Assembly (NCBI GenBank): GCA_030652695.1 | Contig: JAUSQD010000098.1 | Coordinates: 1-47,209, forward strand | DNA: 47,209 nucleotides | Direction of reading: 5' to 3' | Source of the DNA: Actinomycetota bacterium | Lineage (GTDB): Bacteria > Actinomycetota > Actinomycetes > S36-B12 | In this document: piece after piece, positions 1 to 4,873 of the stretch | Layout: every line of letters begins with the position of its first letter | How positions within the stretch are numbered: the stretch's first letter is position 1 | Program-made: the position numbers and the translations under genes | Notes under the pieces: model-generated | Seen by the model: the letters and a program-made list of their open reading frames with translations, nothing else | Databases searched by the model: none | Told to the model about the DNA's origin: nothing

Positions 1-1091
1 CCCGGCTCGGGCTGGGCGAGCTCGGCGGCGCCGTGGGGGTAGACCGTGCCGCAGGAGTGCACGTTGGGGTCGATCAGCGGCGCCAGCCGGCTGGGGGCCG
101 AGAGCACGGGGTCGAGGTCGAGGCGGACCTCGGACAGCCAAGCGAGGTCGGGGCGGAAGCCGGTCACGACCACCACCTCGTCGACGTCGGCCACGCTCGC
201 CCCGTCGACGGCGATGATCCGCAGCGCGCCCGGGTGGTCGGGGTCGTGGGTGACCTCGGCCGTGCGGAAGCGGGTCACCGGCGTGACGGGACCGGCGGCG
301 ACGGCGGCCTGCGCCGCCTTGCCGAGCGCGCCGCGCGCCTCGAGCTGGTCGTTGTCGCCGCCGCCGAACGCGTCGGCCGTCTCGCCACGGCGTACGAGCC
401 AGGACACGCGGGTGCCCGGCACCCGCTCGGCGAGCTGGGTCAGGCCGACGAGGACGTTCTGTGCGGAGGCGCCGGTGCCGGCGACCGCGACGTGCCGGCC
501 GCCGAAGCGGGCGGCGGTCTCGGCCGCGGCGAAGTCGGGGATCCCGTAGGTGATCTGGTCGGCGTGCTCCGCCTCGCCGTACGCCGGCAGCCCGTCGGCC
601 CCCAGCGGGCTGGGGTCGCCCCAGGTGCCGGAGGCGTCGATGACCGCGGACGCGAGCAGCCGCTGGGTCCCGGTCGGGGTGGCGACGCGCAGCTCGAACG
701 GCGTCTCGGCGCGTCCGGCGTCGACCATCCGGTCGCGTCCCTGGCGGGTGAGCGCGGTGACGCGGTGCCCGAAGCGCACCTCCACCTCGGCGGTGGCGGC
801 GAGGGCGTCGGCGAGCGGCACGAGGTAGTCGCGGGCCCAGTCCTCACCGGTGGGGTACGACGCCGGGGCGGGTGGGGCCCAGCCGCGGCCGGCGAGCAGG
901 GCGGCCGCGACGGGGTCGACGAGCTCGCCCCAGGCCGAGAAGAGCCGGACGTGGCCCCACTGGCGCACGGCCGCGCCGGCGGTGTCGCCGGTCTCGAGCA
1001 CGACGGTCGGGAGCCCGCGGGACTGGGCGTGAGCAGCGGCGGCGAGCCCGATCGGGCCGGCGCCGACGATGACGAGGGGGTGCGTGGTCAT
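1..1091 (-). CDS. FAD/NAD(P)-binding oxidoreductase, ArsO-like flavoprotein of actinobacterial ars clusters (3' end runs off the window)
   Basis: My own minus-strand translation from the ATG at complement 1089-1091 gives MTTHPLVIVGAGPIGLAAAAHAQSRGLPTVVLETGD... (GxGxxG dinucleotide-binding fold). The frame stays open to position 1, so it is absent from the ORF track because no stop lies in the window. The + strand ORF 33..1121 is its antisense shadow. It is divergent from an arsR-family gene across a 67-bp palindrome-bearing spacer. Confidence 0.7.
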   Translation of the reverse strand, partial: MTTHPLVIVGAGPIGLAAAAHAQSRGLPTVVLETGDTAGAAVRQWGHVRLFSAWGELVDPVAAALLAGRGWAPPAPASYPTGEDWARDYLVPLADALAATAEVEVRFGHRVTALTRQGRDRMVDAGRAETPFELRVATPTGTQRLLASAVIDASGTWGDPSPLGADGLPAYGEAEHADQITYGIPDFAAAETAARFGGRHVAVAGTGASAQNVLVGLTQLAERVPGTRVSWLVRRGETADAFGGGDNDQLEARGALGKAAQAAVAAGPVTPVTRFRTAEVTHDPDHPGALRIIAVDGASVADVDEVVVVTGFRPDLAWLSEVRLDLDPVLSAPSRLAPLIDPNVHSCGTVYPHGAAELAQPEP

Positions 1092-1145: not shown

Positions 1146-1158
1146 GTATGGTCGGCGT

Positions 1159-2010
1159 ATGACGCAGACCCCGGTCAGTCCCGCCCTGCTCCCCGCCCTG
1201 CCCGCTGACGCGGCCACGACGTACGCCGAGTGGTTCGCCACGCTGTCCGACCCGACGCGGGTGCGGCTGCTGCACGCCGTGTCGTCGTCGCGCGCAGGCG
1301 CGCTGCGGGTGGGCGACCTGGCCGCCGCGCTGGGGATCAGCCAGTCGACCACCTCCCACCATGTCCGCCGGCTGGCCGAGGTCGGGTTCGTGAGCGTCGA
1401 CAAGGTCGGCACCTCCTCGGTGGTCACGGTCAACCCCACCTGCTGCACCGGCCTGCCGCACGCCGCCGACGTCGTCATGGGCACGCTCGCGGAGCTGCCC
1501 TGCTGCCCGGAGGACCTGCCCGCCGACGTCACCACCCGGGCGATGGCCGACGCCGACCTCGAGGCGGTGCGCGACATCTACGTCGAGGGCATCGCGACCC
1601 GCAACGCGACGTTCGAGACCGAGGCGCCGCCGGCCGACGAGCTTGACGGCAAATGGCTGCCGGAGCACCGCTGGGTGGCCGAGATCGACGGCGCCGTGGT
1701 CGGCTGGGCCACGGTCGCCCCGGTCTCCGCGCGGGCCTGCTACGCCGGGGTGGGGGAGACGTCGGTCTACGTGACCGAGGCGGCGCGCGGTCGCGGCGTG
1801 GGCAAGTCGCTGGTACACCGGCAGGTCACCGAGGCCGACCGCGGCGGGCTCTGGACCCTGCAGACCTCGATCTTCCCCGAGAACCGCGCCTCCATCGCGC
1901 TGCACCACTCCGCCGGCTTCCAGACCCTGGCCGTCCGCTCGCGGATCGCCCAGCTGGACGGCGTCTGGCGCGACACCGTGCTGCTCGAGCGGCGCCGCTG
2001 CGACGACTGA
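1159..2010 (+). CDS. ArsR-family winged-helix regulator fused to a PAT/ArsN1-like GNAT N-acetyltransferase
   Basis: The N-terminal half has the ArsR/SmtB signature (LSDPTRVRLLHAV...LGISQSTTSHHVRRLAEVGFV). The C-terminal half resembles phosphinothricin/arsinothricin acetyltransferases (VRDIYVEGIATRNATFETE...YVTEAARGRGVGKSL...IFPENRASIALHHSAGF). ATG 1159 (MTQTPVS) is preferred over the ORF-track start 1069, which would overlap the divergent gene and the palindromes. Confidence 0.8.
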   Translation: MTQTPVSPALLPALPADAATTYAEWFATLSDPTRVRLLHAVSSSRAGALRVGDLAAALGISQSTTSHHVRRLAEVGFVSVDKVGTSSVVTVNPTCCTGLPHAADVVMGTLAELPCCPEDLPADVTTRAMADADLEAVRDIYVEGIATRNATFETEAPPADELDGKWLPEHRWVAEIDGAVVGWATVAPVSARACYAGVGETSVYVTEAARGRGVGKSLVHRQVTEADRGGLWTLQTSIFPENRASIALHHSAGFQTLAVRSRIAQLDGVWRDTVLLERRRCDD

Positions 2011-2026
2011 CCCCCGGGGGTGTCCA

Positions 2027-2066
2027 GACACATCGATGTCTGTCAATATTGATGTATGTCGATATC
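2027..2066. promoter_or_regulatory. Operator-like palindromes and direct repeats at the start of the second arsR
   Basis: Palindromic core ACATCGATGT at 2030-2039 and palindrome TCAATATTGA at 2043-2052. Direct repeat GATGTCTGTC (2035-2044) / GATGTATGTC (2051-2060). These are preceded by CCCCCGGGGG at 2011-2020. Confidence 0.4.
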
Positions 2067-2400
2067 CGCCCCGCTGGACTGCTGTACCCCGCTGGCACGC
2101 GAGCCGATGTCGGCCGAGGGTGCCGACCGGGTCGTCCCGATGCTCAAGGCGCTTGCCGACCCGGTGCGCCTGCGCCTGATGTCGATGGTGCTCTCGCGCG
2201 TCGGCGCCGAGGCGTGCGCCTGCGAGCTGCTGCCGGCCTTCGACCTCTCCCAGCCCACCATCAGCCACCACCTCAAGGTGCTTCACGCGGCCGGCCTGCT
2301 CGACCGCGACAAGCGCGGCGTCTGGGTCTACTACCGCGCCCGCCCCGAGGCGATCGCCGCGCTCGGCACCCTCTTCGACTCCGAGCTGGCCCCGGCATGA
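2056..2400 (+). CDS. arsR: ArsR/SmtB-family arsenic-responsive transcriptional repressor
   Basis: 114 aa with LADPVRLRLMSMV...CACELL...LSQPTISHHLKVLHAAGLL and an N-terminal vicinal Cys pair (PLDCCTP). The stop overlaps the acr3 start (ATGA). Confidence 0.9.
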   Translation: MSISAPLDCCTPLAREPMSAEGADRVVPMLKALADPVRLRLMSMVLSRVGAEACACELLPAFDLSQPTISHHLKVLHAAGLLDRDKRGVWVYYRARPEAIAALGTLFDSELAPA

Positions 2401-3482: not shown

Positions 3483-3901
3483 CCGTCCCCCCGACCGTCC
3501 CCCCGACCGTCCCCGAGGTGCTGTTCGTGTGCGTGCACAACGCCGGGCGCTCGCAGATGGCCGCCGCCCTGCTGGAGCACCATGCCGCCGGCCGGGTCGT
3601 CGTGCGCTCCGCCGGCTCGGCTCCCGCCGACTCGGTCAACCCGGCCGTGGTCGAGGTGATGAACGAGCTCGGCATCGACGTCTCCCGCAAGATCCCCACC
3701 AAGCTGCTCACCGAGGACGTCGAGGCGTCCGACGTGGTGGTCACGATGGGCTGCGGAGACGCCTGCCCGATCTTTCCGGGCAAGCGCTACGAGGACTGGG
3801 TGCTCAGCGACCCCGCAGGCCAGGGCATTGCTTCCGTGCGTCCGATCCGCGATGAGATCAGGGCACGAATCGAAGAGCTGATCTCCGAGATTGCCCCGTG
3901 A
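3479..3901 (+). CDS. arsC: Arsenate reductase, low-molecular-weight phosphatase (LMW-PTP) type
   Basis: MTVPPTVPPTVPEVLFVCVHNAGRSQMAAAL: a CX5R(S) P-loop, followed by VVTMGCGDACP. The start overlaps the acr3 stop (ATGA). The composition switches from very high to moderate GC within the last ~80-130 nt. Confidence 0.88.
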   Translation: MTVPPTVPPTVPEVLFVCVHNAGRSQMAAALLEHHAAGRVVVRSAGSAPADSVNPAVVEVMNELGIDVSRKIPTKLLTEDVEASDVVVTMGCGDACPIFPGKRYEDWVLSDPAGQGIASVRPIRDEIRARIEELISEIAP

Positions 3902-3925: not shown

Positions 3926-4411
3926 CTAGCAGCACGTAGCTCCAGCTGGCTCACTGGAGTCAAGTGAAGCGCAGCAGGCATTGCCGCCAACTTGATTGAT
4001 GATCATCGGTTCGAACACAGCATCGTTTGTCAGGTCATCGGTAATCGTGTAGATCTCCCAGGGCGCGCCGGCTGGATCGTGCGCCCAGGTCTTGTCCTGC
4101 TCTGCGTAGCAGCACACAGTGCGATTGATGTCCGAGAGCTCCACCCCTTCACTGGCAAGTCGCTGAGCCGTGGCAGCGACGGCCTCAGAATCCTCAACTT
4201 CGATCCCGAGGTGGTTCAGGGCACCTGCAGTGCCAATGCCCCGCTCCTCACTTGATGCCTGAATCAACACCAGTTTCAAGGGAGGTTCAACGATTGCAAA
4301 GTTTGCGTATCCAGGGCGCCGCTTGTGCGGAGTGGTGTTGAACAGGCGCGAGTAGAACTCAACAGAGGCTTCAAGGTCTGACACATTCAGCGCCAGCTGC
4401 ACTCGGGACAT
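3926..4411 (-). CDS. arsI: ArsI/CadI-family VOC metalloenzyme (candidate C-As lyase)
   Basis: Glyoxalase/dioxygenase-fold N-terminus MSRVQLALNVSDLEASVEFY, HLGIEV, and the vicinal Cys pair in TVCCYAEQDKTWAHDP typical of ArsI. The C-terminal tail is Cys-rich. The start is taken at M13 of the track ORF. Confidence 0.75.
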   Translation of the reverse strand: MSRVQLALNVSDLEASVEFYSRLFNTTPHKRRPGYANFAIVEPPLKLVLIQASSEERGIGTAGALNHLGIEVEDSEAVAATAQRLASEGVELSDINRTVCCYAEQDKTWAHDPAGAPWEIYTITDDLTNDAVFEPMIINQVGGNACCASLDSSEPAGATCC

Positions 4412-4435
4412 GGGTCTCTTCCAATCCATAGATGA

Positions 4436-4496
4436 ATATCGATACACCGATTCTCGAACATATATCGATAGATGTCAATAAAGATAGATATCGATA
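4436..4496. promoter_or_regulatory. Three ATATCGATA boxes (palindromic core TATCGATA), a candidate ArsR operator array in the arsI/arsR divergent region
   Basis: Exact copies at 4436-4444, 4462-4470 and 4488-4496, with a constant 26-bp period. The segment is AT-rich and lies between the arsI start (4411) and the arsR start. Confidence 0.6.
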
Positions 4497-4540
4497 TATG
4501 GGGTTACGTATGCGACCATGTCCTCATGGCAATCCCCAAG

Positions 4541-4873
4541 ATGATCGACATCGCGCCGAGCTCAACGAGCTGCTGCGATCCCGGGCTCTCGGCCCCGATG
4601 AGTCGAGCCGATGCTGACGGACTTGCCCAGCTGCTCAAGGCAGTCAGTGATCCCACTCGCCTGCAACTGCTGTCGATCATTCGCTCAAGGCCGGACAATC
4701 AGGCTTGCGTGTGTGATCTGACCGGTCCAGTTGGGCTTTCGCAGCCGACCGTCAGCCACCATTTGAAGGTGCTGACCGACGCCGGCATTCTCCAGCGAGA
4801 GCAGCGCGGCACTTGGGCTTGGTTCTCCATCAATGACTCAAGGCTGCAGCAGATTGCGCAGGCGCTCGCTTAA
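4541..4873 (+). CDS. arsR: ArsR/SmtB-family arsenic-responsive repressor (third copy, moderate-GC module)
   Basis: MIDIAPSSTSCCDPG...VSDPTRLQLLSII...ACVCDL...LSQPTVSHHLKVLTDAGIL. Start 4541 was chosen by N-terminal alignment to the 2056..2400 ArsR. In-frame alternatives are 4526 and 4472; the 4472 ORF would overlap the box at 4488-4496. Confidence 0.85.
   Translation: MIDIAPSSTSCCDPGLSAPMSRADADGLAQLLKAVSDPTRLQLLSIIRSRPDNQACVCDLTGPVGLSQPTVSHHLKVLTDAGILQREQRGTWAWFSINDSRLQQIAQALA

Follow-up and report, generated by a model that had tools for sequence, protein, structure and literature searches.

The 47,209-nucleotide contig JAUSQD010000098.1 of an Actinomycetota bacterium (assembly GCA_030652695.1), referred to below as the window, encodes near its 5′ end a protein in which a repressor domain of the ArsR/SmtB family is joined to an acetyltransferase domain of the GNAT family that resembles ArsN1. 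On balance, our analysis favors a reading in which this fusion is a trivalent-metalloid-responsive autorepressor that controls a divergent flavoprotein gene and a pump gene, carries an active ArsN1-like acetyltransferase, and was derived from merged genes. All of the parts come from known families, fusions of ArsR to enzymes are known, and the architecture is already present in databases. No description of an ArsR-ArsN/GNAT fusion, of its cysteine arrangement, of its operator or of its partnership with a Cys-tailed flavoprotein was found in searches of full-text literature. The gene and its domains are laid out as follows.

1159 to 2010, forward strand: ArsR-ArsN1-like fusion gene, 283 amino acids, with a winged helix-turn-helix (wHTH) at residues 16-106, a linker at 107-124 and the GNAT domain at 125-278.

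The translation of this stretch is free of stops and forms one open reading frame (ORF). Pfam places HTH_5 at residues 31-79 (E-value 1.5e-12, 47.7 bits against a cutoff of 22) and Acetyltransf_1 at residues 153-254 (E-value 2e-12), and the N-terminal half also exceeds the cutoff of the NCBIfam model NF033788, HTH_metalloreg (60.4 versus 55 bits). The AlphaFold (AF2) monomer model, with a mean predicted local distance difference test score (pLDDT) of 83 and a predicted template modeling score (pTM) of 0.58, contains a complete wHTH made of helices 16-28, 32-42, 51-58, 62-74 and 93-106 and strands 78-83 and 86-91, the wing spanning 78-91. Both the fold and the model cutoffs place the domain in the ArsR/SmtB family. 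The last helix, residues 93-106, is alpha-5; the 18-residue linker that follows it is modeled with low confidence, pLDDT falling below 50 at 114-118. The single ORF joining ArsR and GNAT domains that was proposed in a preliminary description of this DNA therefore stands on the translation, the Pfam and NCBIfam domains and the AF2 model.

A frameshift introduced by sequencing or assembly could have joined separate arsR and arsN genes artificially. Separate, overlapping arsR and GNAT genes do occur in Micromonospora, and a probable assembly join lies further along the window, both of which would suit such an error. Against this, the two domains lie in one unbroken frame in 80/80 loci, each from a genome representing one species and including the complete isolate genomes of Janibacter sp. 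G56 and Nocardioides sp. T5; full-length orthologues are annotated by NCBI; and an independent Logan contig from an unrelated sample (run X2) spans window positions 1192-2181 with substitutions only and no gaps. We therefore rejected the artefact, to which we assign a negligible probability. The preliminary description had also asked how often such fusions occur. A scan of one genome per species returned 299 relatives, and the counts out of 80 given here and below refer to the best 80 of these, mostly Nocardioides with Marmoricola, Janibacter and Brachybacterium. A search of 5.8 billion proteins gave >5000 matches, the best 120 of which were all full-length two-domain proteins with 75-94% identity (Nocardioides, Janibacter, Demetria). 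The ArsR-GNAT architecture is thus not rare, with thousands of database proteins carried under generic NCBI names such as [quoted passage not shown] or “metalloregulator ArsR/SmtB family transcription factor.”

Two vicinal cysteine pairs are candidates for a sensing function.

1441 to 1446, forward strand: codons of Cys95-Cys96, an invariant vicinal pair in the first turn of alpha-5 (context NPTCCTGLPH).
1501 to 1506, forward strand: codons of Cys115-Cys116, in the disordered interdomain linker, within a PCCPxDLP motif (context LPCCPEDLP).

The first pair is kept in 80/80 species and PCCP in 76/80, the four exceptions being RCP, SCP, SWP and one loss; the second Cys of the linker pair, equivalent to Cys116, is retained in 78/80, so that a third Cys is kept. 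The linker pair follows the first by 20 residues in 73/80 loci. Both pairs are better conserved than the residues around them: the alpha-5 segment CCTGLPHAADVVMGT is almost invariant, the three residues preceding PCCP are variable, and PCCPxDLP is conserved again. The two pairs had been described as sitting exactly between the domains. This is true of the second, while the first lies inside the ArsR domain, being part of alpha-5 (residues 93-106) in the AF2 model. Their conservation among fusions likewise holds for the close orthologues and breaks down in a second fusion clade, which has no more than one Cys here. No clear example of a free-standing ArsR with both CC pairs was found, the short matches being truncated or frameshifted fragments of fusions. 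As a side observation, 10 of the 80 species loci, and orthologues such as P0006, P0011, P0019 and P0021, encode a third vicinal pair, DDCCEP, in an N-terminal extension.

The As(III) site types of ArsR proteins have been summarized (PMC12607644), and the fusion was compared with three of them. A type 1 (R773) CVCxxC site in alpha-3 was rejected: the sequence reads AGALRVGDL, and Arg50 occupies the position of SmtB Cys61 in the HMMER alignment. A site of the Corynebacterium glutamicum type (CgArsR; Cys15-Cys16 plus Cys55 of the partner subunit) was also rejected, as there is no Cys before residue 95 and Ala46 stands at the position of Cys55 (GGCGPVSV; HMMER alignment to 6j0e). The absence of the classical alpha-3 CxC site noted in the preliminary description is upheld by these substitutions. 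CgArsR 6j0e is nevertheless the closest solved ArsR by sequence (E-value 2e-11), although its own Cys ligands are absent from the fusion; the N-terminal DDCCEP of ~12% of the orthologues, which the window protein lacks, resembles its Cys15-Cys16 ligands. The nearest likeness in ligand arrangement is to AfArsR of Acidithiobacillus ferrooxidans, whose As(III) site is formed by Cys95, Cys96 and Cys102 in the C-terminal alpha-5 region (PMC12607644). Like AfArsR, the fusion is a repressor of the ArsR/SmtB family that lacks the CVC site of alpha-3, has vicinal Cys at 95-96 in the alpha-5 dimerization region and has further Cys toward the C-terminus. Unlike AfArsR, its pair opens alpha-5, and the further Cys form a second vicinal pair 20 residues on, past the helix, at 115-116 and not at 102, in a region where 6j05 does not align. 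From the conservation and from the analogy with the alpha-5 site of AfArsR, we infer that Cys95/Cys96 together with Cys116 (and Cys115) would be the ligands. The site may be intersubunit, because in an antiparallel alpha-5 dimer each helix begins close to where its partner ends.

The same cysteines could instead sense a signal other than arsenic, either Cd(II), Pb(II) or Zn(II), as at the alpha-5/C-terminal sites of CmtR-type proteins, or oxidants through a disulfide switch. The protein gives weak NCBIfam matches to CmtR (23 bits) and other thiol-based sensors of the ArsR/SmtB family, a set of four Cys is well suited to tetrahedral metal coordination, and vicinal Cys motifs are known in redox sensors too. 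Other observations point elsewhere: in many genomes the module has Acr3, ArsC and ArsR genes beside it, an ArsK-like pump and an ArsN1-like enzyme are conserved together with it, and the RCP and SCP variants keep the equivalent of Cys116, leaving three Cys, which fits a three-coordinate As(III) site. We therefore regard a non-arsenic signal as unlikely.

The acetyltransferase half is most similar to the ArsN1 and phosphinothricin acetyltransferase (PAT) families. Its best NCBIfam model is ArsN1 family A (NF040503; E-value 5.5e-40, 136.7 bits), followed by ArsN1 family B (E-value 1.7e-18, 66.9 bits) and the phosphinothricin (PPT) acetyltransferase model (E-value 4e-15, 55.9 bits); its ten nearest free-standing relatives score 125-141 bits against the ArsN1a model. 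The top 50 Foldseek matches in the Protein Data Bank (PDB) are PAT/ArsN/YncA-type and other GNAT acetyltransferases with target-normalized template modeling (TM) scores of 0.76-0.85, the matches 9igk, 5dwn, 1vhs, 5jtf, 5wph and 5t7e having E-values of 1e-13 to 1e-10. The set includes the Pseudomonas syringae PAT with L-PPT (33% identity), Bacillus subtilis YwnH (1vhs, 31%), BAR and PpArsN1 (24%), the arsinothricin N-acetyltransferase of P. putida KT2440 (PMC6465285). The residues expected for catalysis and substrate binding are found in one motif.

1726 to 1770, forward strand: substrate/catalytic motif S190-A-R192-A-C194-Y195-AGVG-E200-TSV-Y204 of the GNAT domain, located by alignment to PATs and orthologues.

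A gap-free alignment places this motif against RPRAAY...VEDSVY of PAT 9igk and GRPAY...AEVSIY of 1vhs, and the motif has the spacing of Arg77, Tyr80 and Tyr89 of PpArsN1, the residues that contact arsinothricin and PPT (PMC6465285). Arg192, Tyr195, Glu200 and Tyr204 are present in 80/80 orthologues, and an acetyl-CoA loop pattern like RGRGVG in 72/80. The half thus has the PAT-type fold, the substrate Arg/Tyr and the catalytic Glu. It shares with the ArsN1/PAT family (PpArsN1, BAR, PSPTO_3321, YwnH) the fold, the R-x-x-Y-x4-E-x3-Y motif and an ars gene neighborhood. It departs from that family in its score, its low identities, its Cys194 and the attached DNA-binding domain. Cys194 (1738-1740) adjoins the substrate-binding Tyr195 in 76/80 orthologues (S-x-R-x-C-Y); a second actinobacterial clade has R-C-x-Y in its place, and characterized PATs have Ala at these positions. 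This pocket thiol might matter for a trivalent arsenical substrate.

The joining of a regulator to an enzyme domain could also mean that the protein is a one-component regulator, the GNAT half being a sensor of arsinothricin-like amino acids or of acetyl-CoA that modulates DNA binding by the ArsR half, with the Cys pairs secondary or structural. A second fusion clade that keeps the architecture with 0-1 Cys, one member of which (L090) is in an ars locus, would be in line with this, and as ArsR and PAT/ArsN1 proteins are both dimers, the two domains could communicate; the substrate site of PpArsN1 is itself formed from two chains (PMC6465285). However, the catalytic and substrate motif conserved in 80/80 orthologues is typical of active enzymes, the same GNAT is found free-standing in the same operon context in Micromonospora, the linker is predicted to be disordered and the pTM of 0.58 is such that no fixed interface is predicted, and the conservation of the Cys pairs exceeds that of the residues around them. 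A sensor role of the GNAT half is therefore rather unlikely, and we favor an active enzyme joined to a thiol-based repressor.

The separate-gene state of the same proteins suggests how the join arose. A search started from the distant fusion P0139 yielded a second group of relatives, and ORF frames in their high-GC loci were anchored by tblastn. In Micromonospora, the arsR product ends ...ACVDCFPSAADVVMGRPAPHPNGAC (also given as ...ACVDCFPSAADVVMG...GAC), and the last few bases of arsR are shared with the beginning of a distinct GNAT gene that is read in a different frame; downstream of the GNAT gene, in the same orientation, come a flavoprotein gene and often a gene of the major facilitator superfamily (MFS). 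This operon (L103, L120, L158 and others) resembles the fusion locus in uniting the same four gene families; its ArsR has an alpha-5 Cys cluster (ACVDC...GAC), and its GNAT belongs to the same actinobacterial ArsN1a-like group. It differs in that arsR and the GNAT gene are separate and the flavoprotein gene lies downstream on the same strand and is not divergent. Genuine fusions whose alpha-5 region has at most one Cys were found in Streptosporangiaceae and in an Amycolatopsis strain; in the latter, the fusion lies immediately behind arsR-acr3-arsC. A maximum-likelihood tree built from GNAT domains groups the Nocardioides-type fusions in a single clade (100/100) and nests the other fusions among unfused GNAT genes; fusion has thus arisen at least three times. 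With the separate, overlapping genes of Micromonospora and repeated fusion elsewhere, the join looks like a merger of translationally coupled neighbors and need not be an allosteric device coupling sensing to catalysis. The observations speak neither for nor against the coupling suggested in the preliminary description. The recurrence of such mergers, beside the separate genes of Micromonospora, is independent genomic evidence that argues for a functional link among regulator, acetyltransferase and flavoprotein.

A candidate binding site for the ArsR half lies in the region between the fusion and the divergent flavoprotein gene.

1104 to 1119: operator 1, a perfect 16-bp palindrome, ATCGATCCGGATCGAT, which abuts or overlaps the -10-like TAGAGT of the flavoprotein gene.
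1130 to 1145: operator 2, a palindrome identical to operator 1, 26 bp away.
1147 to 1152, forward strand: -10-like hexamer TATGGT (TANNNT), 1 base after operator 2 and 6 nt before the ATG at 1159.
1104 to 1099, reverse strand: -10-like TAGAGT, followed by seven bases and then the flavoprotein ATG at 1091.
3 to 1091, reverse strand: divergent two-dinucleotide-fold flavoprotein gene (Pyr_redox_3), with its start at 1091, cut by the contig end.

Both palindromes are instances of ATCGA-N6-TCGAT, the arms of which are conserved while the central 6 bp vary. This motif occurs in 2-3 copies, usually 26 bp apart, in 78/80 orthologous intergenic regions. Within 22 kb of promoter windows of 280 bp each, 175 matches were counted, versus 3 in the remaining 793 kb of flanks, a ~2000-fold enrichment. 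The palindrome pair that had been reported next to the fusion is therefore a conserved predicted operator, shared with the divergent flavoprotein gene. The order operator, 0-2 nt, TANNNT, 6-8 nt, start codon was found in 28/81 loci under a strict in-frame test, suggesting two leaderless back-to-back promoters, each of which would be occluded by one operator.

A motif of similar kind was observed at a second ars gene. Upstream of the canonical arsR2 (2056-2400), the segment 2020-2063 contains two adjacent degenerate 16-bp copies of the motif, ATCGATGTCTGTCAAT and ATTGATGTATGTCGAT, together with a palindrome, CAGACATCGATGTCTG. The fusion and arsR2 have similar recognition helices (SQSTTSHHVRRL and SQPTISHHLKVL, respectively), so that cross-regulation between them is possible.

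The divergent gene had been called ArsO-like. Its divergent position, with the start at 1091, is correct, but ArsO identity was rejected with the NCBIfam model NF040505, against which the window fragment scores 49.5 bits and the full-length L006 orthologue 46.6 bits versus a cutoff of 425. The full-length orthologue of Nocardioides szechwanensis (L006:3583-4932) has 449 amino acids, and the orthologues end in a Cys-rich tail, PE(S/T)GVCGG(S/A)G...GGxCC(A/G)P, with a vicinal Cys pair in 120/122; the window copy stops before this tail at the contig end. No close solved relative was found, the sole PDB sequence match being a marginal Rossmann match to thioredoxin reductase, and the orthologues carry generic database names. 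A homologue of this flavoprotein gene is immediately upstream of and divergent from the fusion in ~76/80 loci and is followed by an MFS gene in ~45/80. N. szechwanensis, whose orthologue of the fusion is 92% identical, has the same synteny as the window. The MFS protein is ArsK-like (173.5 bits versus a cutoff of 400). Acr3, ArsC and canonical ArsR genes are frequent nearby, in variable positions.

Taken together, these observations suggest that the module would serve as accessory arsenic resistance of a Nocardioides-type actinobacterium, with the fusion acting as a bifunctional protein. The ArsR half, as a dimer, would bind to both ATCGA-N6-TCGAT operators of the 67-bp divergent promoter region and so repress its own leaderless gene and the flavoprotein gene. 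One bound protein could silence both genes because a -10-like hexamer adjoins each operator and lies 6-7 nt ahead of a start codon; in the full-length loci the ArsK-like MFS pump gene behind the flavoprotein gene would come under the same repression. As(III), and possibly MAs(III) or Sb(III), would be bound by the thiolates of Cys95/Cys96 and Cys116 (and Cys115), probably in a site that bridges the two subunits of the dimer, in the manner of the AfArsR alpha-5 site, releasing the fusion from DNA. The GNAT half would act as an acetyl-CoA-dependent N-acetyltransferase inactivating a toxin of the amino-acid type, arsinothricin or a related compound being the likeliest. Fusion of overlapping, translationally coupled arsR and arsN genes would mainly have fixed their co-expression and possibly added to dimer stability.

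Several points weigh against this proposal. The literature contains, as far as was found, no experimental work on any member of the fusion clade. The 136.7 bits of the GNAT half fall under the ArsN1a equivalog cutoff of 170, so that the closeness to PAT/ArsN1 claimed in the preliminary description holds for the family grouping by NCBIfam, Foldseek and motif and not at the level of the equivalog; its identity to PpArsN1 is just 24%, and Ser stands at the equivalent of PpArsN1 Arg75. On the regulator side, the match to AfArsR 6j05 is weak (E-value 0.068), covering residues 27-85 only and not the Cys region, and pairs spaced 20 residues apart are unlike every characterized ArsR site. Both linker Cys are missing from 2/80 orthologues, and the second ArsR-GNAT fusion clade, found in ars loci, carries 0-1 Cys in this region; thiol sensing is thus not obligatory for the architecture. 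A scan of 1040-2120 found no consensus sigma-70 promoter, and cross-binding with canonical ArsRs is possible given the similar helices and the degenerate motif at the arsR2 promoter.

A more elaborate pathway can also be drawn from the Cys-rich partners. The fusion, the Cys-tailed flavoprotein and the ArsK-like pump would together process a trivalent amino-acid-type organoarsenical, for example reduced arsinothricin or its hydroxy precursor; the CC pairs of the regulator would sense this compound and not inorganic As(III), and Cys194 and the CC tail of the flavoprotein would hand over the substrate between acetylation, oxidation and export. We consider this pathway improbable. If it were true, the CC pairs of the regulator would represent an additional class of ligand site in ArsR proteins.

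The closest published parallel is ArsR^M of Brevundimonas sp. M20, an ArsR fused to a methyltransferase and reported to be bifunctional and to bind its own promoter (PMC10190100). Both proteins join an N-terminal ArsR domain to a C-terminal arsenic-related enzyme; they differ in the enzyme (an acetyl-CoA-dependent GNAT versus an S-adenosylmethionine methyltransferase), in phylum and in context (a flavoprotein/MFS module versus a met operon). The clade described here is a compact, widely conserved unit in which a repressor with a Cys arrangement unlike those of characterized ArsR sites and a defined 16-bp predicted operator are combined with an ArsN1-like enzyme, a Cys-tailed flavoenzyme and a pump resembling ArsK. 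Its study could add a ligand-site type to the ArsR family and reveal the role of the flavoenzyme. Arsenic biosensors are built on ArsR sensors, and we know of no resistance to the arsenic-containing antibiotic arsinothricin other than ArsN1. The clade also bears on whether the many sub-threshold “ArsN1a-like” GNATs of actinobacteria act on arsinothricin.

The host of the fusion can be read from the composition of the window. GC makes up 68-78% of the sequence as far as ~3.9 kb and 54-63% (mostly ~59%) after that, and DNA similarity to N. szechwanensis (90%) and to a Nocardioides metagenome-assembled genome (95%) ends at 3859, inside arsC. In the Logan assembly of the source run, two contigs cover this region, one ending at window position 3800 and the other starting at 3746, with an overlap of 3746-3800 only. 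The window is thus probably an assembly join of two organisms, made at 3746-3860 inside arsC. A Nocardioides-like organism is the source of the fusion, arsR2, acr3 and most of arsC, whereas the ArsI-like gene (3926-4447) and the third ArsR gene (4472-4873) probably come from another organism and may be unrelated to the host of the fusion.

A further enzyme fusion was observed in Nocardioides halotolerans, where a 224-amino-acid protein (L001:7362-8036) joins an ArsR-type HTH to a low-molecular-weight phosphatase of the ArsC type, two genes away from the ArsR-GNAT fusion. ArsR domains have thus been fused to more than one ars enzyme in Nocardioides.

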